10,528 nt of DNA from a virus (Duplodnaviria > Heunggongvirae > Uroviricota > Caudoviricetes). Positions 1 to 10,528 of this stretch are shown in pieces. The translations under genes and the position numbers were made by a program. Within the stretch, counting starts at the first letter, position 1. Each line of letters opens with the position of its first letter. The stretch lies in IMG/VR virus record IMGVR_UViG_2565956629_000002, positions 1 to 10,528 of that record. The stretch is one strand, 5' to 3'. The notes under the pieces are model-generated. The model was not told where the DNA came from, ran no database searches, and saw only the letters and a list, made by a program, of their open reading frames with translations.

Positions 1-63
1 ATTGAGTGGGAATGATTAATAGCTAACTCATAGCAAATCATTTCTATTCAGACACTAACTCAA

Positions 64-94
64 CCCTCTGTTTTTACAGAGGGTTTTTGTTTTT
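64..94 (+). terminator. Rho-independent terminator of an upstream (off-window) plus-strand transcript
   Basis: Stem CCCTCTG (64-70), loop TTTTTA, stem CAGAGGG (77-83), followed by TTTTTGTTTTT. The reverse strand has no T-tract after the hairpin, so it looks unidirectional. Confidence 0.5.
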
Positions 95-143
95 ATGTAT
101 TCATTTCTATTCACTCTACACCATATTTTTCGGCGGTACAGGT

Positions 144-178
144 GACGGTATTACCTTAAAGGTATACTCTCATACCGT
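144..178. promoter_or_regulatory. Nested inverted repeats upstream of int, including an operator-like TTACC-N5-GGTAt site (151-165)
   Basis: GACGGTAT (144-151) and ATACCGTC (171-178) form a perfect 8-bp inverted repeat. Inside it, TTACCttaaaGGTAt matches the operator motif found in the immunity region with one mismatch. Sits about 30 bp upstream of the int start. Confidence 0.3.
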
Positions 179-207
179 CATGAAAATGGTTTCTATACGG
201 GTGAATT

Positions 208-1458
208 GTGCTTACCGATACAAAATTAAAAAACCTCAAGCCGCAGGACAAACTGTACAAGGTCTCCGATCGTGACGGGCTGTATGTAGCTGTGCTTACG
301 TCAGGCACGGTCTCGTTTCGCTACGACTACCGTATCAACGGTCGCCGCGAAACGCTGGTAATCGGGCAGTATGGGCGTGACGGTATCAGCCTGGCAGAAG
401 CGCGAGAAGAACTGATTGCTGCAAAGAAGCTGCTTAAAGCAGGCCAGTCACCGGCTGCGGCTAAACGTGACGGTATCAAAAAGATTCGTGGTGCCGAGAC
501 GTTTGCGGTACATACCGACAGTTATATGAAACACGTCATCCTGGCTGACAGTACCCGCGCAATGAAACAGGCGGTGATCGACCGTGACATACTTCCGGTT
601 CTTGGCAATAAAATGATGGCTGAAATTACCACATCGATGGTTCGTGATTTGTGTGACCGGATTGTCGAACGCGGTGGCCGGGCAACAGCAGTGCAGGCCA
701 GGGAGATCATCAGTAGCGTATACCGTCACGCCAATGACCGTGGTCATGGTTTGTTTAATCCTGCGGCTGACATTAAACCTTCGTCTATCGCCATATTTAA
801 ACCAAGAGAGCGAACACTGACACCAGAAGAAATTGGCCTGTTCTTCCGCACGCTGGATGCCATTGGTGCTATGGGCACTATGAAAATGGCTTTAAAGCTG
901 GTGCTTATCACTATGGTTCGTAAAGGCGAATTCACCAACGCAACGTGGGATGAAATAGATTTTAAAAAATGGACATGGACCATTCCTTCAGACCGCATGA
1001 AGGGAAGCCGGGCGCACGTTATTTACCTGCCTAAACAGGCTCAGGATATATTGGTCGGATTGCAGATGTGCGCTGGTGGAAGTGAATATCTGGTTCCTGG
1101 TCGTTACAATTTCCGGAAGCCATTATCTAATGCCGCGCTGAACTCTCTGATCGACAGAACGGTGAAAATAATAAATGAAGATGGTGAGCATATTCAGGGC
1201 TTCACCGTACACGATATGCGCCGTACAGCCAGTACATTGTTGCATGAGGCTGGTTATCCTTCAGACTGGATTGAAAAGGCTCTGGCACATGAGCAGAAAG
1301 GTGTGCGCGCCGTATATAACAAAGCGGAATACGCCAGACAGCGCGCCTACATGTTGCAGCAGTGGGCCGATATGATTGATTCCTGGATTGACGGGGAGCA
1401 TACGGATCTGATTCCGTTCTCCCCGTCGAAGTTTGAGAAGTGGATGGCGGGGGAATAA
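208..1458 (+). CDS. int: Tyrosine site-specific integrase (P4-like phage integrase family)
   Basis: 416-aa ORF with a GTG start at 208. N-terminus MLTDTKLKNLKP...DGLYV...FRYDYRINGRRE is typical of the P4-type integrase arm-binding domain. C-terminal catalytic signature includes HDMRRT (H-x-x-R) and VRAVYNKAEY (catalytic Tyr), plus the conserved WADMID tail. Confidence 0.93.
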   Translation: MLTDTKLKNLKPQDKLYKVSDRDGLYVAVLTSGTVSFRYDYRINGRRETLVIGQYGRDGISLAEAREELIAAKKLLKAGQSPAAAKRDGIKKIRGAETFAVHTDSYMKHVILADSTRAMKQAVIDRDILPVLGNKMMAEITTSMVRDLCDRIVERGGRATAVQAREIISSVYRHANDRGHGLFNPAADIKPSSIAIFKPRERTLTPEEIGLFFRTLDAIGAMGTMKMALKLVLITMVRKGEFTNATWDEIDFKKWTWTIPSDRMKGSRAHVIYLPKQAQDILVGLQMCAGGSEYLVPGRYNFRKPLSNAALNSLIDRTVKIINEDGEHIQGFTVHDMRRTASTLLHEAGYPSDWIEKALAHEQKGVRAVYNKAEYARQRAYMLQQWADMIDSWIDGEHTDLIPFSPSKFEKWMAGE

Positions 1459-1461
1459 CGT

Positions 1462-1656
1462 TTAATTATTCTGCTGATTTTCTTCCATCTCGGCTTCTGC
1501 TGCCAGTGATTCAATTTTATCTGTGAATATTGCTGACAGTGTTGCAAATTCAGCATCAGTGACAGCGGGAATTGGAACAAACCTGATCCCGCTGTGTGCA
1601 AGCATGTTTGCAGTTTCAAGGCATTTCCTTAAATCTGCTGGTGATGCCCTGTTCAT
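1462..1656 (-). CDS. Small hypothetical protein (64 aa) with acidic C-terminal tail, last gene of the cargo cassette
   Basis: ATG at 1656-1654 overlaps the methyltransferase stop (ATGA overlap). GGGAG lies 8 nt upstream. Protein MNRASPADLRKCLETANMLAHSG...AEAEMEENQQNN. The longer 104-aa track ORF (start 1776) would overlap the MTase out of frame and is disfavoured. Stop is 3 nt from the int stop. Confidence 0.4.
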   Translation of the reverse strand: MNRASPADLRKCLETANMLAHSGIRFVPIPAVTDAEFATLSAIFTDKIESLAAEAEMEENQQNN

Positions 1657-2300
1657 GCTGCACGCTCCCGCCCCTGGTTGTCTGTTGGTGACAGCGGAGC
1701 ATTGCTGAATGCATTTGTTAATCCGGCAATATACAACGCGTATCCAGGGTGTAGTTGCACTGCTGGGTCTTCGCACTGATTACCCCAAACATCGAAGCCA
1801 TGAGACGTTTGGCGGGCGAACAGTTCAATGCGAGAAACATCGCCTAACAATTGCACAAGTTTTTCACGAACGACATCTGGTTTTCTTGAATGCTCAAGCC
1901 GCGGTGCGGTAAATGACTGAACGATACCTGCATTAATGCGCGGAGGTAGTTTTCCCTTTACCGCAAACAGGCAATCTTCACTGTTGGCGCGAGTCATGTG
2001 TCCCATCCCCATAACCAGTTTATCTGGTTGTCGACTACCACATTTTATCCACGTGAAGCCCTTCATGGTCATCAGACGAAATCCCCAGGCTTCAACAACT
2101 TTTAGTGCTTCGAGTGGTTGTGTTGGCACCCACCACATGGCCAACAGACAGTTTTCATCGGCCAAATCCCACACAGGAAGGCGGCAGATATCCAGCACAC
2201 TCATAACCGGATATTTAAAACCGGCACCGCGATTACCATCTGCGGCTTTGTCCCGGTATACCCAGGGTGGATCTGCATAGATTAGCGTGTATTTTTTCAT
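1653..2300 (-). CDS. MT-A70 family N6-adenine DNA methyltransferase (215 aa)
   Basis: Start ATG at 2300 (internal Met of the track ORF) with GGGAG 7 nt upstream. MKKYTLIYADPPWVY carries the DPPW catalytic motif close to the N-terminus, as in MT-A70-type enzymes. ELFARQTSHGFDVWGNQ near the C-terminus is also typical. Start overlaps the stop of the upstream DndB-like gene (ATGA). Confidence 0.85.
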   Translation of the reverse strand: MKKYTLIYADPPWVYRDKAADGNRGAGFKYPVMSVLDICRLPVWDLADENCLLAMWWVPTQPLEALKVVEAWGFRLMTMKGFTWIKCGSRQPDKLVMGMGHMTRANSEDCLFAVKGKLPPRINAGIVQSFTAPRLEHSRKPDVVREKLVQLLGDVSRIELFARQTSHGFDVWGNQCEDPAVQLHPGYALYIAGLTNAFSNAPLSPTDNQGRERAA

Positions 2301-3364
2301 TGTTCTGCTCCCAGACTTCCTTTGGTAAAGGCTTGTATCAGCCTGTTTGCTGCCGCTTTCTGTGCTGCTACATTGGCAATAACTGATAGTTTTTCCTGGC
2401 TTGCTTTCGTGCAGATCCCAACCCAATTATCCATTAGGAAAAAATTCTCTCTTTCTGCGAAGTCAGTATTTGCACATAATGTTTCAATCATTGAAATTAT
2501 TTCTTTTATTGAGTGATTAACCATCATTTGCTGAACAGCATAGCCAAAAGCGTTAATCATCACTGCATGAAACTGGATATATTCTCTTTTGTATTCTGAT
2601 TGCTTTGTACCATGGCGAATTGCTTCTAGTTGTGTAAGACATAACCATGATTCCCATACTGACTCGATGTTACCAATTTCTAGTTTTTTCCCATTATGAA
2701 TACAAAATTTTGATGTTGAATCACTTAATGCTTTGAAACTCACCCACATGTTTGACTTTGACGGAACAACGTTGTGCTCGAAGTCAGTGACTTCTGCAAA
2801 AGTGTCATGTTGCGACAGGAAAGACACCATTTCTTGGGCAACATCGTTTCGTCCGTCATACGCCATATTAATTGCTGCAGATGGTTTTGAAACATTATTA
2901 TTAATGTCAGAAAAGAACTGCTGACGCGCCTTCAAAGGAAGGTTATGCGTAAGCATAAGAGGAATCATAATTGTTTCGCCATAATTACGGCAGAACTCAG
3001 CTAATCCTGCAGCACGATGCTGTCCATCAAATAATTTTATTTCTGCATCCATAGGAAATCTAGCTAAACCGACATTAGTATTTCCAATCTCATGGAACTC
3101 TATTTCTGAGTTACAATTTCCGACCAATGGTGGAACAATAAATGGTTCCTTTTTCTCGTAAGCGTTGACTAAATATTGATAAAACTTTTTTACCCTGGTT
3201 GGATTAATTTCACGTTGAGAACGTTCAAGGGTACTTCCCGTATTGTCGGTTGCCAATACTCTCGATAGTGCTCTTGCTGGTACTGTCATCATAAGTATTA
3301 CAGTGCTTCCCTGCGTTCCTCGTGATGCGGGAAATTCAAAGAAATAATCGCCTACCTTGCTCAT
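2297..3364 (-). CDS. DndB-like DGQHR-domain protein (ParB/Srx-fold, DNA-modification-associated family)
   Basis: Contains the name-giving motif LFDGQHRAAGL and an N-terminal YFFEFPASRGTQG segment as in DndB/DGQHR proteins. Start placed at ATG 3364 (MSKVGDYFF, AGG about 7 nt upstream). An in-frame ATG at 3400 would add 12 N/Q-rich residues and is the alternative. Gene is visibly more AT-rich than its neighbours. Confidence 0.82.
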   Translation of the reverse strand: MSKVGDYFFEFPASRGTQGSTVILMMTVPARALSRVLATDNTGSTLERSQREINPTRVKKFYQYLVNAYEKKEPFIVPPLVGNCNSEIEFHEIGNTNVGLARFPMDAEIKLFDGQHRAAGLAEFCRNYGETIMIPLMLTHNLPLKARQQFFSDINNNVSKPSAAINMAYDGRNDVAQEMVSFLSQHDTFAEVTDFEHNVVPSKSNMWVSFKALSDSTSKFCIHNGKKLEIGNIESVWESWLCLTQLEAIRHGTKQSEYKREYIQFHAVMINAFGYAVQQMMVNHSIKEIISMIETLCANTDFAERENFFLMDNWVGICTKASQEKLSVIANVAAQKAAANRLIQAFTKGSLGAEQ

Positions 3365-3392
3365 GATATTACCTTTTACATTATTGTTTTGA

Positions 3393-3692
3393 TTATTCAT
3401 AAACCACCCCGCAACATCCTATGCCGCTATAGTCGCCACGGCGAAGGCCGTTACCTTTTGTGATACATTGGTCCCTGCGAACCGCGATCCTTGCACGTTC
3501 AACATCACCAGAAGCAACATCCATACACTGAAGCCAAAGGTGAGCGGCAATGCGGAATTGCCCTTTTTTCTCTCTTTCAATCGCGCGTTTTTCGATCTCT
3601 ATCGCCGCAGGAGTAACGGCGACAATCTTTGACGGACTGCGCATTGAAACCTTATTCATGTGATATTTTTCAAGTCGGCTTAACTTTCTCAC
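3393..3692 (-). CDS. Hypothetical small protein, possible first gene of the cargo cassette
   Basis: Only long ORF on either strand in this 300-bp segment. GTG start at 3692 with GAGGG about 9 nt upstream; alternative internal ATG starts at 3659 and 3644. Stop TAA at 3393-3395 lies within the ATGAATAA context of the 3400 alternative start. No recognisable domain. Confidence 0.4.
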   Translation of the reverse strand: MRKLSRLEKYHMNKVSMRSPSKIVAVTPAAIEIEKRAIEREKKGQFRIAAHLWLQCMDVASGDVERARIAVRRDQCITKGNGLRRGDYSGIGCCGVVYE

Positions 3693-3801
3693 TTAATCCA
3701 ACCCTCTCTGAAAATTAATGCCAGCAGATAAAGCCATGCTGAAACAGAGGCCAGGAATAAGTACCATCCTGACCATTTGCTCCAGTGCCTTAGCAGCACA
3801 C

Positions 3802-4050
3802 TCATGCAGCGTTGCTCACAGGACGATATACACGTTGCTGAACAGGAGGCTTTTTACCCTGGAACTCTGCCGGGCTTGCTGCCTGACGTTCATCAAGCCA
3901 ACGCTCAACTTCGTCACGGTTCCATGCGCAGCGTTTGTCAGTGATATACCAGCGTTTAGGAAATTCACCTGCGCGCTCCATACGGTCGATAGTGCTCCAT
4001 GACAGTGGCACCACCGCCAGGAGTTCCTTCTTACCTAATGCACCTTTCAT
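3802..4050 (-). CDS. AlpA/Xis-family excisionase-like DNA-binding protein
   Basis: 82-aa protein with LLAVVPLSWSTIDRMERAGEFPKRWYITDKRCAWNRDEVERWL, the typical MerR-like winged-helix signature of AlpA-type prophage excisionases/regulators. RBS GAGAGGT 5-6 nt upstream of the ATG. Confidence 0.85.
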   Translation of the reverse strand: MKGALGKKELLAVVPLSWSTIDRMERAGEFPKRWYITDKRCAWNRDEVERWLDERQAASPAEFQGKKPPVQQRVYRPVSNAA

Positions 4051-4072
4051 AAATACCTCTCTTGGTTGCAGT

Positions 4073-4091
4073 GCGGCGCGCGTGGCGCCGC
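4073..4091. repeat. GC-rich perfect palindrome (7-bp stem, 5-nt loop) between recT and the excisionase gene
   Basis: GCGGCGC gcgtg GCGCCGC. No T-tract follows on either strand, so it is not a canonical intrinsic terminator. Confidence 0.4.
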
Positions 4092-4099
4092 GGTGGTGG

Positions 4100-5017
4100 T
4101 TACATAGATGTTTCGTTTAATTCTTCCCGACGAACGCTGTAAACGTCGGTGGCTTTTGCCAGCAGTTCGTCATCATCTGAAAGTTTTTGTGCAATGTATT
4201 TGTAAGCCTTATCCAGTTCGGAGACAGTGCTGTAATTCATCGCTGCGCTGGTAAAGGCCATCAGCATTTCTTCTGGATCACGGCTATCCGCTTTACGCGT
4301 TTGCTCATCAGGCTTTTTCACTGTTTTAGCGTTGATCAGACTGTTCATGCTGGATGCTGTGCCGTGCTTTGCCTGACTTCTTGGAGTTACGTCACGTTCA
4401 ATAATGTCAGGTGAGTCGATATATTTACCTTCCATTTCCTCAGCTGTGGCTTGTTGACCAATCTCCGGCCATGCTTTACGTAATGCCTGTGCCTCTGCGC
4501 ATTTTGCCAACTGCGCATAAGGGCGCTTTTTCCACATGGCATTTGGTGCCGATGTGTCACGCCCCCCAGTTGCATAGTTCTCAATCCAGTATTCTTTGGC
4601 GCTAAACTCTACGATTTCCCCGCTTGCCATTCGCTTGCTGACGGTGTACTTACACCACTGAGGGAAGGTAACCTCCACGCCTGAAAGCGTTTGTGTTACA
4701 TCTGGACCGAACTCAGGTTCATTAGCGCCTGCGTAATCGCCGGAACGGTAGGCCTGAATGCGATAAAGTCCAATGCCAGGCATGACCACGTCGCGCCATT
4801 CATTCTTTCCACTCTTCGAGTCTTTAACACTCATTGGTACCAGGTGTACCGGCTTAAGAAGAGGATCGAGTTGACGCGCCCGGCAGTAATCGACTGCCAT
4901 CATTACCGATTCATCTTTTGCCCCAGGGTAAATACTGTTTTTCAGAGCGCTCCATGTAACTTCATCGATTCCCCGAATAGCCAACACATCATTGGTGATT
5001 GCAATTTCGTTGCTCAT
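4100..5017 (-). CDS. recT: RecT-family single-strand annealing recombinase
   Basis: Start ATG at 5017 (internal Met of the track ORF; AGGA 9 nt upstream) overlapping the exonuclease stop (ATGA). A GTG at 5044 is the alternative. SKSGKNEWRDVVMPGIGLYRIQAYRSGDYAG resembles the conserved RecT core as recalled from Rac RecT. Confidence 0.88.
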   Translation of the reverse strand: MSNEIAITNDVLAIRGIDEVTWSALKNSIYPGAKDESVMMAVDYCRARQLDPLLKPVHLVPMSVKDSKSGKNEWRDVVMPGIGLYRIQAYRSGDYAGANEPEFGPDVTQTLSGVEVTFPQWCKYTVSKRMASGEIVEFSAKEYWIENYATGGRDTSAPNAMWKKRPYAQLAKCAEAQALRKAWPEIGQQATAEEMEGKYIDSPDIIERDVTPRSQAKHGTASSMNSLINAKTVKKPDEQTRKADSRDPEEMLMAFTSAAMNYSTVSELDKAYKYIAQKLSDDDELLAKATDVYSVRREELNETSM

Positions 5018-5835
5018 ACGTACATATCCTGTTTGCGTGCCCACTCAGGGCGTTTAATAATTTCCACGCCGCCCCATTCATCGCTGATGCGGCATTCGTG
5101 ATAGGTATTCAGATCCCGGCGGAACAGAGCGTGCCCGGCATCGACATCCGGCGCATCCAGCCCGAACACGCGTACCGGATACCGACCACAATCAATGCTT
5201 TCGCTCACGGCAAGAAAGAAAAAACCATGCGGCTGACCAGTAATCCTCATTGCGCCTTCGCGGTACATTGCGTCCTGCACGTGGTAGCGGAATTCCTCGA
5301 TGTGACGTGCAAAACGGTCCATATCTGCAACCTTTTTCACGTCGACGATCACGTTGTGCTCGTTCAGCCATTTGTCTGGACGAATTCGGCACAACTCACC
5401 CGTCTCTTCATCGTTCCAGTACATTGATGCTTCGCAGTAACCAGGTGCTTCCAGCATCCAGCGTGCCGCCGGGTGAGCCATTGCGCTATCACGCATCAGC
5501 TCCAGTTTCCGCCACTGCTCGGCATCAAGTACCGTAATCCCCATATCCGCTACATCACGAAGAAATGCTTCTTCGTCAGCTTTACCTTGTTTCGTCCGAC
5601 GATCGAACTTCGGTGAAACAATGAAGCGTTTGTCGAATTCTCCAGGCTCCAGAAGCAGACAGTGCAATGCGGTTCCCATATCCAGTGCAGACTTTTTCTC
5701 TTCGTCTTCTGGTGCTGCCTGAACCCATTTAAGAAGCGCCGGATTCTTGGCAACCATGTCCAGTTGCGACTTACTCACGCCGTCACCGGCGTGGTAGTCT
5801 TCGTTGCTGATGTCGAAATAAATTCCCGGTTTCAT
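5014..5835 (-). CDS. RecE-like PD-(D/E)XK exonuclease (exodeoxyribonuclease VIII-like), partner of RecT
   Basis: 273-aa ORF immediately upstream of and translationally coupled to RecT. Sequence features recall the C-terminal nuclease domain of prophage RecE-type exonucleases. ATG at 5835 overlaps the upstream gene stop (ATGA). Confidence 0.8.
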   Translation of the reverse strand: MKPGIYFDISNEDYHAGDGVSKSQLDMVAKNPALLKWVQAAPEDEEKKSALDMGTALHCLLLEPGEFDKRFIVSPKFDRRTKQGKADEEAFLRDVADMGITVLDAEQWRKLELMRDSAMAHPAARWMLEAPGYCEASMYWNDEETGELCRIRPDKWLNEHNVIVDVKKVADMDRFARHIEEFRYHVQDAMYREGAMRITGQPHGFFFLAVSESIDCGRYPVRVFGLDAPDVDAGHALFRRDLNTYHECRISDEWGGVEIIKRPEWARKQDMYV

Positions 5836-6131
5836 GCCGCTTCCCTCTGCCCATCAAGCTGATCCGCCAGATCCCAGCGCGCTATAATTGCCATTGCCTC
5901 GCGCCGGTAGGAATCCATCAGTTCTTCGAACTCAGGGCTGTCTTTAGCAGCCTCCAGCACTTCCTGACGAACGCCTTTGCCTGTTACAACGTCGAAAGTT
6001 GAGGACAGTTGATGAAGTCGGATGCTCTCAATCAGTTCAACTTGTCGGTCATATAGCTGTTCTGACAGGCGGTAGTCCTTGTCGAATGCCAGCATGATTT
6101 TTTGAAGATTTTTCTGCTGATTAACGTTCAT
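5832..6131 (-). CDS. Hypothetical early-left-operon protein (99 aa)
   Basis: Start ATG at 6131 with strong GGAGG 7 nt upstream (an ATG at 6146 is less likely). Stop overlaps the exonuclease start. No recognised domain; occupies a position analogous to gam/abc-type genes in lambdoid phages. Confidence 0.7.
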   Translation of the reverse strand: MNVNQQKNLQKIMLAFDKDYRLSEQLYDRQVELIESIRLHQLSSTFDVVTGKGVRQEVLEAAKDSPEFEELMDSYRREAMAIIARWDLADQLDGQREAA

Positions 6132-6133
6132 TA

Positions 6134-6286
6134 TCAGCCCTCCCATATCTCGTTATCGTTGGCCACATCGCGAGCTTCTTTGCTGACGAAAGCCCACTTA
6201 ATGCCTTCCTGTAAGGTGCGGAACTTCCAGCTCATGAATCCGCATGCAGTAACGCAGTACCAACCGTTGATGATTTTCCACTGCAT
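6134..6286 (-). CDS. Small W/C-rich hypothetical protein (50 aa), first gene after the pL-like promoter
   Basis: Not in the supplied track (under 60 aa). ATG at 6286 with GAGGT 8 nt upstream. Hand translation: MQWKIINGWYCVTACGFMSWKFRTLQEGIKWAFVSKEARDVANDNEIWEG. Stop TGA at 6134-6136 is followed after 2 nt by the next gene's ATG. Confidence 0.5.
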   Translation of the reverse strand: MQWKIINGWYCVTACGFMSWKFRTLQEGIKWAFVSKEARDVANDNEIWEG

Positions 6287-6305
6287 AACTTGTTACCTCG
6301 GTCTG

Positions 6306-6382
6306 TTACCGTTGAGGTAATAATTATGCGTATTTGGTTTGATGTCAATAGATATGAGTTAAAAAAATTACCCATAAGGTAA
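6306..6382. promoter_or_regulatory. OL-like operator pair: two perfect TTACC-N5-GGTAA palindromes flanking the pL-like promoter
   Basis: TTACCgttgaGGTAA (6306-6320) and TTACCcataaGGTAA (6368-6382), 62 bp centre to centre. Confidence 0.6.
6320..6348 (-). promoter_or_regulatory. pL-like early leftward promoter
   Basis: On the minus strand: TTGACA (complement of 6343-6348), 17-nt spacer, AATTAT abutting the 6306-6320 operator. The second operator lies 19 bp upstream of the -35. Confidence 0.45.
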
Positions 6383-6393
6383 TCTTGTTGGCA

Positions 6394-6418
6394 ATAAAAA
6401 AGCCGCCATGAGGCGGCT
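6394..6418 (-). terminator. Rho-independent terminator downstream of the repressor gene
   Basis: Stem AGCCGCC (6401-6407), loop ATGA, stem GGCGGCT (6412-6418). On the minus strand the hairpin is followed by TTTTTTAT (plus-strand A-tract 6394-6400). Confidence 0.65.
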
Positions 6419-6439
6419 TACTTACTGAAAACTATAGTT

Positions 6440-7024
6440 TTATTGTTTGCTTCTTTCGTTCTGGCTGATGACAAATTCAATGTAACTTTCGATCTTTGCC
6501 TTCTCTGTTTCGGGTAACAATGCGTAGCGCGAGCGGTCATAGTTGATAGTCGCAGGGTCGTGCGGGTGAATCAGTAATTCATAGCCGTGACGCCCGAATG
6601 CGGATGCAACATTCTCCAGGGTGGAAATGGAAACGCTGACTTCATTGTTTAACAGGCGGCTGATTGTCACCTGGGCGACGCCGGATGCGCGGTGTAGTTT
6701 TCCCTGCGTTGAAAGGTCGCGGCTTTCGCTCATCCAGCGTTCCAGGTTGTGAGCCGCCAGCTGACCAATGTCGCTTGGGCCGACAGGCTGAAACCCCTCC
6801 TGAGAAAGCGAGCGATCGATATCAAGCCAGTTACGGGGTTTATTGGCGGCAGCTTCAATTTTTCGCGCAACCTGGTCGCCGATAACCTTCTTGCCAAGAG
6901 CCCAGCGGTTTACCAGATTTGCCTGAGTTCCAAGTTTTTCTGCCATCCGCGTCTGAACACCATTGAATTCACGGTCGATCAAGTCGTTGAGATTTTGCCT
7001 GCGGACGTCCTGGATACTTTTCAT
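6440..7024 (-). CDS. Prophage repressor-like protein with two HTH domains and no S24 peptidase domain
   Basis: 194 aa, transcribed divergently from the cro-like gene across an operator-rich region. Two HTH-like segments (QTRMAEKLGTQANLVNRWALGKK and LHRASGVAQVTISRLLNNEVSVS). No LexA-type Ala-Gly cleavage site or Ser/Lys peptidase module recognisable. Confidence 0.8.
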   Translation of the reverse strand: MKSIQDVRRQNLNDLIDREFNGVQTRMAEKLGTQANLVNRWALGKKVIGDQVARKIEAAANKPRNWLDIDRSLSQEGFQPVGPSDIGQLAAHNLERWMSESRDLSTQGKLHRASGVAQVTISRLLNNEVSVSISTLENVASAFGRHGYELLIHPHDPATINYDRSRYALLPETEKAKIESYIEFVISQNERSKQ

Positions 7025-7079
7025 TTTCTGGAAAATCGCCTCATATATGAATCAGTAGATGATTCAATTTAAAGCAATA

Positions 7080-7142
7080 TTACCCAACAGGTAAATGCAC
7101 CTCATAGGTAACTATCCTTGATTTTTGTTACCTTATGGGTGA
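7080..7142. promoter_or_regulatory. OR-like operator cluster between the repressor and cro-like genes
   Basis: TTACCcaacaGGTAA (7080-7094, perfect), gcACCtcataGGTAA (7097-7111, degenerate), TTACCttatgGGTgA (7128-7142, one mismatch). Confidence 0.6.
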
Positions 7143-7153
7143 ATATTTATTAT
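7125..7153 (+). promoter_or_regulatory. pR-like promoter for the cro-like gene
   Basis: TTGTTA (7125-7130), 17-nt spacer, TATTAT (7148-7153). The 7128-7142 operator overlaps the -35 and spacer. Confidence 0.35.
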
Positions 7154-7178
7154 CTGAAATAAATATCAGGCAATAGCT

Positions 7179-7409
7179 ATGAGCGATAACGGACATTTCG
7201 ATTTCAAAAAGCACTGGCTTGCACTTACTCCGGATGAGCGTGAAGCCTTCGCACAGGAAGCCGGAACGACGAGTCACTATATCCAGACTCACTTAACAGG
7301 TAAGCGCAAAATGCCAGGTAAAGTATTGATGAATGGGCTTTTTAAAGCCTGTAAAACAAGACAATGGCTGCGCTCAAAAGCAGAACTGGCATACTTCTTC
7401 TACTCATGA
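7179..7409 (+). CDS. Cro-like small HTH regulator (76 aa)
   Basis: Divergent from the repressor, immediately right of the OR-like operators. HTH-like segment REAFAQEAGTTSHYIQTHLTGKRKM. Followed by a terminator. Confidence 0.75.
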   Translation: MSDNGHFDFKKHWLALTPDEREAFAQEAGTTSHYIQTHLTGKRKMPGKVLMNGLFKACKTRQWLRSKAELAYFFYS

Positions 7410-7431
7410 TATCCAGCTACAACCCTCTGTA

Positions 7432-7453
7432 GACCGCCACCCGGCGGTCTTTT
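7432..7453 (+). terminator. tR1-like rho-independent terminator after the cro-like gene
   Basis: Stem GACCGCC (7432-7438), loop ACCC, stem GGCGGTC (7443-7449), then TTTT (short T-tract). Confidence 0.5.
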
Positions 7454-7557
7454 CATATCTATTCGTACCTCAAAGGTAATAAAAAACCAAATCTGGTTGA
7501 TCAAATTTTCCAATTGTGCAAAATATCCAATATCAATAACAAAAAGAGGCGGAAAAA

Positions 7558-7770
7558 TTGAAGATAGTAACCAGAATGGAGGCCGCAAAAGCCGGGTTAA
7601 ATCGCTATTTCACAGGAAAGCGGTGCCGTCACGGCCATCTCTCTGAAAGGTATGTTCTGAACGGAACATGTGTTGAATGTGCAATGAATAGCGCCAACCG
7701 CCATCGTAATGAATTTGCTTGTGCACTAAAGAGTGCAAGAGGGGAAACCTATGGCAAGCAGCTGGATTAA
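7558..7770 (+). CDS. Small zinc-finger-like protein at the CII position
   Basis: KRCRHGHLSERYVLNGTCVECA has a Cys/His cluster (C-x-H-x-H ... C-x-x-C). TTG start at 7558 with GAGG 8 nt upstream; the first ATG is at 7576 without an obvious SD. 3' end overlaps the next gene. Confidence 0.6.
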   Translation: MKIVTRMEAAKAGLNRYFTGKRCRHGHLSERYVLNGTCVECAMNSANRHRNEFACALKSARGETYGKQLD

Positions 7771-8575
7771 GGTTGAAGTTATCACTCCTGATAAACCTGA
7801 AATTTTTCAGATAGCAGAAATTCTGGGTATTGATCCAGATGCTGTTCTTGGAAAGCTGGTTCGTATATGGGCATGGGCTGACCAGCAAACAATAGACGGT
7901 AACGCTGGCAGCGTTACAAAAGGAGTACTTGATAGACTCGCTTTTATTACAGGATTTGCTGACGCCCTCATTAGCGTCGGATGGCTTGCTTATCATGACG
8001 GCAAACTAATTCTTCCAAACTTTGAGCGACACAATGGAGAATCATCGAAAAAACGTGCACTTACGAATAGAAGAGTGGCAGAGCATCGAAAACGAGTAAC
8101 GCAAAAAGTAACGCCAACAGCGTTACAAAAGGAGTTACCAGAGGAAGAGGAAGATATATATAAAACCCCACACATAGCGCACGTGCGCGAGGGTGCTCCG
8201 ACCAGTGAAGCGAACGGTATGCCGTTGCAGGTGGCTGAACCTGAATTTCTGGATGGCCTGAGTGAACCCATCGGGAAATTTCCGATGACCGATGGCTGGC
8301 ATCCGTCGCCGGATTTTCGACGGCGTGCTGCGCTGTGGGGAACGGCCCTGCCGGAACCGGAATTTACACCTGCTGAACTTGCTGCATTCCGGGATTACTG
8401 GATGGCTGAGGGCAAAGTGTTCACGCAGGTTCAGTGGGAACAAAAATTCGCCAGGCACGTAAATCATATCAGGGGAAAATCAAAAAACGCCGGGAAAAGC
8501 GATGAGCTTGACTGGAATAACACTGACTGGATAGAAGGGGTGTGGGATGAAATCAACTCCAGAACTTCTCAATGA
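7751..8575 (+). CDS. Replication initiator (O-analogue; DUF1376/YdaU-like N-terminus with DnaT-like C-terminus)
   Basis: ATG at 7751 with GAGGGG 8 nt upstream. N-terminus MASSWIKVEV...LGKLVRIWAWADQQ and C-terminus PMTDGWHPSPDF...FRDYWMAEGK recall the prophage replication-initiation family found upstream of P/DnaC-like loaders. Contains internal iteron-like repeats. Confidence 0.75.
   Translation: MASSWIKVEVITPDKPEIFQIAEILGIDPDAVLGKLVRIWAWADQQTIDGNAGSVTKGVLDRLAFITGFADALISVGWLAYHDGKLILPNFERHNGESSKKRALTNRRVAEHRKRVTQKVTPTALQKELPEEEEDIYKTPHIAHVREGAPTSEANGMPLQVAEPEFLDGLSEPIGKFPMTDGWHPSPDFRRRAALWGTALPEPEFTPAELAAFRDYWMAEGKVFTQVQWEQKFARHVNHIRGKSKNAGKSDELDWNNTDWIEGVWDEINSRTSQ
8096..8168. repeat. Iteron-like repeats plus AT-rich tract inside the initiator gene: candidate replication origin
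   Basis: GTAACGC at 8096-8102 and 8108-8114, inverted GCGTTAC at 8120-8126, at a 12-bp period. Followed by GAGGAAGAGGAAG and the AT-rich tract GATATATATAAAA (8156-8168). A similar GTAACGC-N5-GCGTTAC palindrome sits at 7907-7925. Confidence 0.4.
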
Positions 8576-9323
8576 GTACGATCGCTTACGTGAGCATGGT
8601 GTTGCTGTGCATGAAGAGCGGCGTGACAGCAATGGCAAAAAGGAGCATGTCGCTAGAATTTTCAATGAACTATTTGTCCAGTTACAGGCTGCATTTCCCG
8701 CAAGCGTTTCGACCATAAGGGAGCAGAACAAACTTAATGAATTCCGTAAGCAATGGATGCTTGCGTTTCTGGAGAATGGGATCACTACAATGGAACAGGT
8801 TAACGCTGGTATGCGCCACGCCCGCGCCAGTGAGTCTCCGTTCTGGCCGTCGCCAGGGCAATTCATCAAGTGGTGTAAAGACAGCAAGATGGTTCTTGGC
8901 GTCACCATTGACGATGTGATGGCAGAGTTTCACCGGTACAGCAAGGAAAAAAGTTTATATCCTGGTGGTCCCGAAAGATTCCCGTGGCGGCACCCGGTTA
9001 TGTACTGGGTCGTATGTGATACCCGCCGTGCAATGTATCAGCGCCAGCTTAGCGAGATTGAGGTTGAGAAACACGCGCGCAGGCTGCTCGATGATTGGGC
9101 GAAAAAGGTGGCTTCAGGACAGCAGATACCCGATCCGGTGATCAGCATACAGGCAAAGCCAGAACCCATGAGTACGCCTCCGGACACAGGGAGAGACGTT
9201 TACCATCCACCAGGGCGAAGTTTCGGGTGCATGCCTAACGCCGCCACCCTTGGGGGAATAACACCGGCGCAGTGGCTGATGGAGGAATACAGGCGGGGAA
9301 AGGCGGCAGGATTTATCAAGTAA
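8547..9323 (+). CDS. Lambda P-like replication protein (DnaB helicase loader)
   Basis: The stretch QLQAAFPAS...EQNKLNEFRKQWMLAFLENGITTMEQVNAGMRHARAS...PFWPSPGQFIKWC closely parallels the conserved core of lambda P as recalled (FPAS, QW.LAF.ENGITTMEQVNAGMR, PSPGQF..WC). Confidence 0.88.
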   Translation: MKSTPELLNEYDRLREHGVAVHEERRDSNGKKEHVARIFNELFVQLQAAFPASVSTIREQNKLNEFRKQWMLAFLENGITTMEQVNAGMRHARASESPFWPSPGQFIKWCKDSKMVLGVTIDDVMAEFHRYSKEKSLYPGGPERFPWRHPVMYWVVCDTRRAMYQRQLSEIEVEKHARRLLDDWAKKVASGQQIPDPVISIQAKPEPMSTPPDTGRDVYHPPGRSFGCMPNAATLGGITPAQWLMEEYRRGKAAGFIK

Positions 9324-9360
9324 TACCAGCGCGATAGCGCATTTTTTTACGTCTCGATAA

Positions 9361-9437
9361 TTACCTGTGAGGTAATAAAATATTCTAAACTCTATTGATT
9401 TCGTGTCTTATGTGGTTTTTAATTACCTCAGGGGTAA
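9361..9437. promoter_or_regulatory. Third operator pair (O3) flanking a promoter downstream of the replication genes
   Basis: TTACCtgtgaGGTAA (9361-9375) and TTACCtcaggGGTAA (9423-9437), both perfect, 62 bp centre to centre: the same spacing as the OL pair. Confidence 0.55.
9395..9423 (+). promoter_or_regulatory. Candidate repressor-controlled rightward promoter (P3)
   Basis: TTGATT (9395-9400), 17-nt spacer, TTTAAT (9418-9423) abutting the downstream operator. The upstream operator ends 19 bp before the -35, the same geometry as the pL-like promoter. Confidence 0.45.
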
Positions 9438-9440
9438 ATT

Positions 9441-9785
9441 ATGAGAAAACAGATACAGGCTCTTGGTCGACTCAAAACAGGCCAGATGAACAAAACAGAA
9501 TCTGCGTATTGCCAGCACCTTGAGCTGCGTAAACGTGCAGGGGAAATCGCCTGGTATCGATTTGAGGGTATCAAGCTGCGATTAGCTGACAACACGTTCT
9601 ATACGCCCGATTTTGCTGTGATGCTCGCCACCGGCGAGATGGAACTGCACGAAGTGAAAGGTTTCTGGACCGACGACGCCAGGGTGAAAACCAAAGTCGC
9701 CGCAGATCAGTATCCGTTCCGAATCATCGGGGTAACGGTTAAACCAAAGAAAGCAGGTGGTGGCTGGAACATCGAAGAGTTCTGA
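9441..9785 (+). CDS. DUF1064-like phage protein (possible PD-(D/E)XK-type nuclease fold)
   Basis: 114-aa ORF with GGGG about 8 nt upstream. YTPDFAV...EMELHEVKG resembles a D...E.K nuclease-type motif. Family name is from recollection, not a search. Confidence 0.75.
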   Translation: MRKQIQALGRLKTGQMNKTESAYCQHLELRKRAGEIAWYRFEGIKLRLADNTFYTPDFAVMLATGEMELHEVKGFWTDDARVKTKVAADQYPFRIIGVTVKPKKAGGGWNIEEF

Positions 9786-9846
9786 ATCGACGATCTTTTT
9801 AGTTATCAATGTAATCAATAAGTTATGTGGATAAGCGAGGGTAAAG

Positions 9847-10284
9847 ATGGAAAGTAATATCAAAGGGTTAGTTGCCGCCGGGCATGAGATGGCTTCGGAA
9901 CTGAAAGCAGAATGTGGTGCCGTTGATATGCGCAGTGTGGCAAAGCTGATCAGCTATTTGGCAACGCAACTGGAAGTGCAACTGGTGCGTGCTAATGCGC
10001 TGGCTGCGGAGAATGCGCTGGCTCGTAAAGCAGTTCAGGCATTTTGCGATGTTGTTGGCGACAGCACCGAGGTTATCTGCGAGGAGATTGGGCGAGATGG
10101 CGTTCTGGTTATTTTGGAGGCAATGAAGGCAACAGGAAATATGCCAGCCACCGATGCTTTCCTGTCTGAAGTGCGGGCGCAGGGGGTAGAGATGATGCGC
10201 GAACATCCATCAATCAAACTTTGTTCTTTGACGCACATATGTGATGAGTTAGCCGCCCAGCTTCGCAAAGGAGGCAGCCAGTGA
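9847..10284 (+). CDS. Hypothetical phage protein (145 aa)
   Basis: Clean ORF with GAGGGTAAAG RBS 5' of the ATG. Alanine-rich, helical-looking. Stop overlaps the next gene's GTG start (GTGA). Confidence 0.7.
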   Translation: MESNIKGLVAAGHEMASELKAECGAVDMRSVAKLISYLATQLEVQLVRANALAAENALARKAVQAFCDVVGDSTEVICEEIGRDGVLVILEAMKATGNMPATDAFLSEVRAQGVEMMREHPSIKLCSLTHICDELAAQLRKGGSQ

Positions 10285-10528
10285 GCGAAATTAATTACCA
10301 GGCATTGCGTGAGGCGGCAGAGAAAGCAACGTGGGGAGACTGGGACTCATATAAACCACACCGTGGCGCACGTGGTTATGAGGTCCGACTAAGTAGTCAG
10401 GCCATTGCGCAACACGTTCTGAAAAACAACGCTGAATTTATTGCTGCCTTTAATCCAAAGGTTGCTTTGGCACTACTGGATGAACGGGAAAAAAACCAGC
10501 AATACATCAAACTCCGCGACCAGGAGAA
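10281..10528 (+). CDS. Ea22-like family protein, 5' partial (continues beyond window end)
   Basis: GTG start at 10281 with GGAGG 6 nt upstream. Hand translation VSEINYQALREAAEKATWGDWD...ALALLDEREKNQQYIKLRDQE matches the N-terminal signature of enterobacterial prophage Ea22-like proteins as recalled. No stop codon before the window ends. Confidence 0.6.
   Translation, partial: MSEINYQALREAAEKATWGDWDSYKPHRGARGYEVRLSSQAIAQHVLKNNAEFIAAFNPKVALALLDEREKNQQYIKLRDQE

Follow-up and report, generated by a model that had tools for sequence, protein, structure and literature searches.

Phages of the genus Uetakevirus, which includes phiV10 and has epsilon15 as its type phage, provide together with the Salmonella phage SPC32H the closest described counterparts of the system considered here, namely a recurrent palindrome, TTACC-N5-GGTAA (N5 being five unspecified bases), and the prophage repressor (Rep) that very probably binds it, in a 10,528-nucleotide stretch of viral DNA (positions 1 to 10,528 of the IMG/VR record IMGVR_UViG_2565956629_000002; hereafter the window). 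In the epsilon15 record (RefSeq NC_004775.2; genome record of Kropinski et al. 2007), seven features are annotated as 'protein_bind, repressor, lysogeny', all seven of which read ATTACC-N5-GGTAAT, and they include a pair at the leftward early promoter (PL) and the distal site of a third promoter. The antirepression switch of SPC32H, made up of Rep, Ant and LexA, is the subject of Kim and Ryu (2013) and Kim et al. (2016). As far as it is summarised in two secondary accounts, SPC32H Rep binds palindromic DNA as a tetramer in which each pair of N-terminal DNA-binding domains is contributed by different dimers (trans-paired), and the complex is disassembled by the tetrameric antirepressor Ant (PMC9638917; PMC9986798). 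A literature search on phiV10 or Uetakevirus operators returned only the study of phage vB_EcoP_ZX5 (ZX5), in which overexpression of the repressor blocks lytic growth and repressor-operator control is discussed without naming sites, the operators being left undefined (PMC9782041).

The window constitutes the left 10.5 kb of a 40-kb epsilon15/phiV10-like prophage of the genus Uetakevirus with guaA as its insertion locus. Its positions 1-10286 match, with 100% identity, a prophage carried by the chromosomes of avian E. coli, including that of avian pathogenic E. coli (APEC) E19035, and the Prokaryotic Genome Annotation Pipeline (PGAP) annotation of this identical prophage was used to decide which sites are intergenic. 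A pattern search of the window returned exactly five perfect copies of the palindrome (starting at 6306, 6368, 7080, 9361 and 9423; Table 1), all five of them intergenic, and no perfect copy occurred in 200 dinucleotide-preserving shuffles. Three further copies carry one mismatch (starting at 151, 7128 and 7465), giving a total of eight sites with at most one mismatch against 0.23 expected, and a search permitting two mismatches added one intergenic site at 7097. By chance, a palindrome with ten specified bases should occur about 0.9 times per Mb given the base composition of the E. coli host, which agrees with the figure of about 0.01 per 10.5 kb given in a preliminary description of this DNA; the perfect and one-mismatch copies listed there were likewise all recovered. 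When the scan was extended to the full identical prophage (40.2 kb), 11 perfect and four one-mismatch sites were found, whereas 159 kb of the same host chromosome outside the prophage held no perfect site and ten one-mismatch sites, so that the motif is not common in the sampled part of the host genome. Nine of the 11 perfect prophage sites fall in intergenic DNA, which makes up 8.2% of the prophage, and the remaining two are found immediately before the start of terS as used in ZX5 and epsilon15. The three promoter regions counted earlier prove to be an undercount: sites near promoter-like elements were correctly recognised, but the window has at least four operator-bearing regions (PL, the right operator cluster (OR) with the rightward early promoter (PR), a weak site that follows the cro-like gene and its terminator, and the third promoter), with a possible fifth at the int promoter, and outside the window the motif recurs at the late, tail-fibre and antirepressor regions.

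Conservation of these sites was examined in six genomes, comprising the window, ZX5, Enterobacter phage Tyrion, Klebsiella phage BUCT711, epsilon15 and SPC32H, which between them represent four host genera (E. coli, Enterobacter, Klebsiella and Salmonella members). The half-sites and their spacing in the window match those of the annotated epsilon15 repressor sites. The PL pair is spaced by 62 bp in five genomes and by 63 bp in BUCT711, the pair after the replication genes by exactly 62 bp in all six, and the OR cluster by 17 and 30 or 31 bp at the orthologous place in all six. Orthologous sites also occur upstream of terS, upstream of a gp3-like head gene and within the tail-fibre/ant region. 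Some members (epsilon15, Tyrion and SPC32H) have another before the lysis genes, and none was found there in ZX5. When the PL and third-promoter regions of five to six genomes were aligned without gaps, all 40 half-site columns proved invariant, as compared with three of 20 N5 columns and 54 of 134 other columns (half-site against all other columns, 57/154; Fisher p = 1e-14). The relatives found by alignment of Rep were all 98-100% identical in that protein and of no use for covariation, and 80 of them from IMG/VR were used for a test of micro-evolution; here variable columns amount to four of 80 in half-sites, 24 of 40 in N5 and 86 of 452 in other intergenic DNA (half-site against all other columns, p = 1e-4). 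Constraint is strong on the ten specified bases and essentially lacking in the spacer, a pattern that is the signature of a protein recognising two half-sites one helical turn apart. In the clade of Salmonella and Klebsiella phages the N5 spacers are rich in A and T, and in that of E. coli and Enterobacter phages their composition is more mixed.

The likeness to epsilon15 extends from the sites, including the 62-bp PL pair and the site after the replication genes, to the homologous neighbouring genes gp37, gp38 and gp39. Epsilon15 differs in having, at a further 76 bp, a third PL site with no counterpart in the window, in its more A/T-rich spacers and in a repressor only 42-43% identical. The repressor sites marked in the epsilon15 record lie at PL, at late genes and beyond the replication genes, the last of these (35906-35922) being orthologous to the site at 9361. 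The OR cluster (33341-33402) and the promoter-proximal third-promoter site at 35969 are left unmarked there, omissions that appear to be annotation gaps.

Homology of the repressor points to Rep as the protein that would read these sites, as had been proposed. Residues 1-190 align to SPC32H Rep (PDB 5D50) with an E-value of 4.5e-42, the C-terminal half aligns with PDB 5D4Z, and the protein is 98.5% identical to the ORF21 repressor of ZX5. By homology, an N-terminal helix-turn-helix (HTH) DNA-binding domain (approximately residues 1-70) is followed by a C-terminal domain for oligomerisation and Ant binding. Pfam returned HTH-type matches only, PHROG giving matches too, and the S24 peptidase domain (RecA-cleavable, with LexA-like autocleavage) is absent from the Pfam matches of Rep. 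Its counterparts in Tyrion, BUCT711, and epsilon15 and SPC32H are 78%, 45% and about 42-43% identical to it, respectively. Conservation is focused on the N-terminal domain, in which the segment NLVNRW (residues 36-41), the putative recognition helix, is invariant; the residues just before it differ between clades, the C-terminal domain is strongly diverged from that of SPC32H, and the residues involved in tetramer formation and trans-pairing in SPC32H Rep are conserved in part. Searches of PDB with the cro-like protein and with the N-terminal domain of Rep gave no DNA-complex template.

A link between the N-terminal domain and the half-site is suggested by more distant repressors, in which the flanking palindromes track the putative recognition helix, although the series is small (coordinates with an L prefix are those of the individual loci compared). 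The cI protein of the Pseudomonas phage PseuP_224, which is 39% identical to residues 4-68 of Rep and has the putative helix SANYISRC, has a different C-terminal part that is not alignable with that of Rep; three perfect and two degenerate copies of TTACC-N4-GGTAA lie on both sides of its gene (L090:2922-2974 and 3797-3836). Three other repressors share the N-terminal domain alone, namely those of the Pseudomonas phages JBD68 (putative helix SYVSRC; palindromes resembling TAACC/TTACC-N4-GGTAA, L093:1924-1985) and Turba (QAQVSSF; TAACC-N5-GGTTA, L094:1905-2000) and of an Acinetobacter prophage (AAYLSQI; TTAGT/ACTAA palindromes, L095:1888-2000). The comparison shows that operator specificity can apparently change in the wider family, and that it appears unchanged within Uetakevirus.

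The placement of the sites is that expected of operators. The PL-like promoter, which serves the leftward early operon (gp37-like, gp36-like, exonuclease, Bet and others), scores ten of 12 consensus positions and is abutted by the proximal site, and its position and hexamers are kept in five genomes. The third region repeats this layout base for base (operator, 19 bp, -35, 17 bp, -10, operator), with its promoter-like element kept across the six genomes, and this conservation suggests that 9395-9423 is indeed a promoter. In the site at 9423 the right half (GGGGTAA) also acts as a Shine-Dalgarno sequence, 3 nt separating it from the ATG at 9441. The GGTAA half-site forms part of a Shine-Dalgarno sequence both there (9431-9443) and at 6286-6297, where a lone TTACC (6293-6297), the reverse complement of GAGGTAAC, stands ahead of the minus-strand gene starting at 6286; the arrangement of operator, 3 nt and ATG also precedes terS in ZX5 and epsilon15.

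The OR cluster lies, as described earlier, between the divergent starts of rep (7024, minus strand) and the cro-like gene (7179). OR site b, which had not been listed before and completes a three-site cluster, is perfect at the same place in epsilon15, SPC32H and BUCT711, and no clade has a perfect site c (TCACC or ACACC in those three phages). Site c falls between the -35 TTGATT and the -10 candidates of the rightward promoter; the former is kept in all six genomes, a consensus scan gave TTGTTA-17-TATTAT (9/12), and the -10 would be placed among the candidates of Table 1. No sigma-70 promoter for rep, equivalent to PRM, was found by the scan in 7025-7110. The cro-like protein is 76% identical to epsilon15 gp39 and 58-84% identical across the compared phages, with an invariant AGTTSHYIQ segment. 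The weak site after its terminator, a degenerate counterpart of which is present at the same position in all six genomes, is located 17 bp upstream of a conserved -35-like GGTTGATC (7495-7502).

According to what Kim and Ryu are said to have reported in 2013, the SOS response induces Ant in SPC32H and Ant inactivates Rep. The present prophage encodes, outside the window, an 85-residue protein 88% identical to SPC32H Ant, about 34.7 kb to the right of the window start in the 100% identical APEC E19035 prophage (region L009:4654-5003, which takes in the upstream sites). A perfect LexA box, CTGTATATTTATACAG, is located directly upstream of ant (L009:4934-4949) with a Rep site 40 bp beyond it (L009:4989-5003), and a LexA box is found at the corresponding place in six of six genomes. 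The scheme of SOS, Ant and Rep known from SPC32H is expected to apply to this prophage, which resembles SPC32H in a full-length Rep, in Ant, in the LexA box at the ant promoter and, on a comparison of sequences, in operator motif and layout; differences lie in the host (Salmonella, as against E. coli here) and in the diverged C-terminal domain of Rep. The Ant proteins of these E. coli and Salmonella phages are 88% identical even though the Reps are only about 42% identical. ZX5 also has an Ant homologue of the SPC32H type (2089-2346, LexA box at 2368), which is annotated as hypothetical, while the BRO-type ORF4 is named as its antirepressor (PMC9782041).

Taken together, the enrichment of the motif, its placement at promoters, the homology of Rep, the annotation of epsilon15, the evolutionary footprint, the link from domain to site, the induction circuit and the secondary literature make it very probable that the TTACC-N5-GGTAA palindromes are the Rep operators of an epsilon15/phiV10-type prophage. 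Two N-terminal HTH domains would then read the two half-sites, the centres of which are 10 bp, or one helical turn, apart. Proximal sites would occlude the -10 and start regions of PL and of the third promoter, and OR site c would occlude PR. The distal sites, 62 bp upstream (5.9, or about six, helical turns and hence on the same face), complete pairs that bracket the whole core promoter. The same Rep tetramer, or cooperating tetramers, probably hold both paired sites and enclose the promoter, the possibility of one tetramer holding two operators being suggested by the trans-paired domains of the SPC32H Rep tetramer. Rep bound at these sites would keep both early units of the lysogen, leftward and rightward, and its third transcription unit silent, and outside the window it would do likewise with the units for terminase, head, tail fibre and antirepressor. 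The two degenerate OR sites and the weak site after the cro-like gene suggest that occupancy is graded, as it is in other switches; of the three OR sites (one perfect and two degenerate), the weakest lies within the PR core. Induction would proceed without RecA cleavage of Rep, by means of the LexA-controlled small Ant of the same prophage, and during lytic growth the cro-like protein probably competes at OR or uses the same sites.

Such a switch resembles those of lambda and P22 in the divergent repressor and cro-like genes with three palindromic operators between them, overlapping PR, and in a second operator region for the leftward early promoter just beyond the repressor gene. It differs in the lack of an S24 autocleavage domain in Rep, in operator pairs that are split by 62 bp around the promoter instead of being adjacent, in the operators at the third promoter and at the late, tail and ant regions, and in an operator sequence that is not diversified between relatives. 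Single repressors acting on many operators dispersed over the genome are represented by C1 of phage P1, which also has an antirepressor route of induction, and by gp71 of mycobacteriophage L5; their operators are asymmetric and the proteins unrelated, while the sites of the window are symmetric 15-17-mers suited to a Cro/CI-type HTH.

Several observations weigh against the operator interpretation or parts of it. The cro-like protein is equally conserved, and sequence does not separate it from Rep as the reader of the sites; the -10 of the third promoter (TTTAAT) is weak by consensus, lacking the canonical A at position 2 (-11), and the element was not called by the consensus promoter scan; a loop of 62 bp is short for bridging by a single tetramer; and the site at 151 overlaps an integrase arm-type repeat, GTGACGGTAT (142-151), of which an inverted copy lies at 170-179. 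In each of the six genomes this last site shows an identical mismatch, but as the attP region is conserved throughout, the agreement does not discriminate; the status of the site is ambiguous, and it could be a weak operator overlying a putative int promoter. A rival proposal is that the motif is the site of another regulator, such as the cro-like gp39 homologue, a late or PerC-type activator or a gp49-type protein, with Rep binding elsewhere and with the sites before the terminase, head and tail-fibre genes serving to activate lytic promoters. The high conservation of the cro-like protein (76-84%) and its invariant HTH would match the invariant half-sites, several sites do stand ahead of late genes, and the distal sites, about 61 bp upstream of the expected starts, would occupy the position of class I activator sites. 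We nevertheless regard this as unlikely, as the proximal sites over the -10 and start regions and OR site c within the PR core are in the positions of repressor sites, repressors of unrelated Pseudomonas phages that have only the N-terminal domain of Rep in common with it are flanked by the same or related half-sites, and curation of epsilon15 attributes the sites to the repressor. Binding of Cro would in any case add to the Rep model, since Cro normally shares the operators of its repressor. Formation of RNA hairpins by the palindromes, as attenuators or as stems sequestering ribosome-binding sites, would accord with a stem of 4-5 bp at each site and with the Shine-Dalgarno sequence inside the proximal third-promoter site, 3 nt from its ATG; however, the hairpins are weak (-2.6 to -3.9 kcal/mol), the distal sites upstream of promoters would not be transcribed, and the half-sites are invariant with no compensatory changes. 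The hairpins were therefore rejected, as were chance or compositional repeats and a host-wide motif in view of the shuffles and the host sample, and this group of explanations is hardly credible.

The preliminary description went further than a repressor binding site and held that the motif defines the immunity specificity of the phage. Half-sites of lambdoid operators do differ between immunity types, and the clade differences in N5 composition and in the residues before NLVNRW could be cited in favour of ten bases that separate this phage from heteroimmune relatives. The claim is not supported by the comparison of genomes, since identical half-sites occupy orthologous positions in six genomes with repressors 42-78% identical to that of the window (42-45% in the more distant ones) and since NLVNRW is invariant, and the N5 spacer, the most variable part even where repressors are 98-100% identical, is an improbable carrier of specificity; the immunity-determinant explanation is accordingly considered very improbable. 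A more speculative proposal, which we offer tentatively and judge to have less than an even chance, is that the strictly conserved 62-bp spacing reflects the clamping of each pair by one Rep tetramer in a very tight micro-loop around the core promoter. On this proposal, the half-sites being invariant across the genus, all Uetakeviruses would form one immunity group at the level of DNA recognition, and any specificity would reside in protein-protein steps between Rep and Ant instead of in the operators.

Table 1. Candidate operators and neighbouring features of the window. 'Perfect' denotes TTACC-N5-GGTAA; promoters and terminators are predicted.
Feature	Position	Strand	Description
Core of attachment site (attL)	1-17	+	ATTGAGTGGGAATGATT; in guaA 3' end; left prophage boundary
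One-mismatch site	151-165	.	TTACCTTAAAGGTAT; upstream of int; possible int -10-like TATACT at 163-168
int	208-1458		First gene of the window
PL proximal operator	6306-6320	.	Perfect; starts at last base of -10 hexamer, over expected start site
PL-like sigma-70 promoter	6320-6348	-	TTGACA (6348-6343)-17-AATTAT (6325-6320); 10/12, consensus scan
PL distal operator	6368-6382	.	Perfect; 19 bp upstream of -35, 62 bp from proximal site
Intrinsic terminator downstream of repressor gene	6400-6419	-	Predicted; also annotated in phiV10
Rep prophage repressor	6440-7024	-	194 residues; HTH N-terminal and C-terminal domains
OR site a	7080-7094	.	Perfect; nearest rep start
OR site b	7097-7111	.	GCACC-N5-GGTAA, two mismatches; 17 bp from site a
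PR-like promoter for cro-like gene	7118-7153	+	-35 TTGATT 7118-7123; -10 candidates 7141-7153
OR site c	7128-7142	.	TTACC-N5-GGTGA, one mismatch; within PR core promoter
Cro-like small HTH protein, epsilon15 gp39 homologue	7179-7409	+	phrog_35 'transcriptional repressor', E 5.6e-13
Intrinsic terminator after cro-like gene	7431-7450	+	Predicted
Weak operator	7465-7479	.	GTACC-N5-GGTAA; after cro terminator, ahead of replication genes
Third-promoter distal operator	9361-9375	.	Perfect; 19 bp upstream of -35-like TTGATT (9395-9400)
Third promoter-like element	9395-9423	+	TTGATT-17-TTTAAT; kept across six genomes
Third-promoter proximal operator	9423-9437	.	Perfect; 62 bp from distal site (62 bp in six of six genomes)
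First gene of third transcription unit, DUF1064/resolvase-like	9441-9785	+	Pfam PF06356; phrog_190

Among Escherichia phages, HEMP4, vB_EcoP_ZX5 and TL-2011b share 98% identity with the window, and phiV10 is a close relative. The att core ATTGAGTGGGAATGATT is repeated 40.2 kb downstream in APEC E19035 and thereby delimits the prophage, and an identical core has been reported for ZX5, phiV10 and epsilon15 (PMC9782041). From left to right, int is followed by cargo genes (methylase, DGQHR, PerC and AlpA), Bet and exonuclease, two small genes and rep, and then by the cro-like gene, a small gene, DnaT-like and P-like replication genes and the DUF1064 gene. Besides the two copies at 142-151 and 170-179, GTGACGGTAT occurs at 377-386, 467-476 and 718-727, so that direct and inverted copies lie around and inside int; it is annotated as an integrase binding site in epsilon15. 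The cargo is unlike that of ZX5 and phiV10 in having a minus-strand MT-A70 family methyltransferase (1653-2300) beside a DGQHR-domain protein (2297-3364), a combination suggestive of a mosaic module (1653-3364) with a possible role in defence or modification, and Bet (4100-5017) takes the place of RecT. Over its last 240 or so bases (10287-10528) the window departs from the E. coli prophages to which it is otherwise 100% identical; the best matches end at 10286-10292, and this points to a mosaic junction where the 9847-10284 gene ends.

The operators are in essence already known, being orthologous to sites annotated in epsilon15, and the repressor system is characterised in SPC32H; the motif is an ordinary feature of the genus and not an immunity-specific signature, and no new kind of system is implied. 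Nevertheless, records of the phiV10, ZX5 and TL-2011b type, together with thousands of similar E. coli prophages, carry no operator annotation, and the map given here (PL, OR, the weak site after the cro-like gene and the third promoter, together with the sites at late, tail and ant genes) would aid the mapping of transcription start sites, reporter assays and the engineering of phiV10-based reporter phages. The combination of operators that are invariant across the genus with the conserved 62-bp bracketing geometry offers a simple test bed for the action on two operators of a tetrameric, trans-pairing Rep such as that described for SPC32H.

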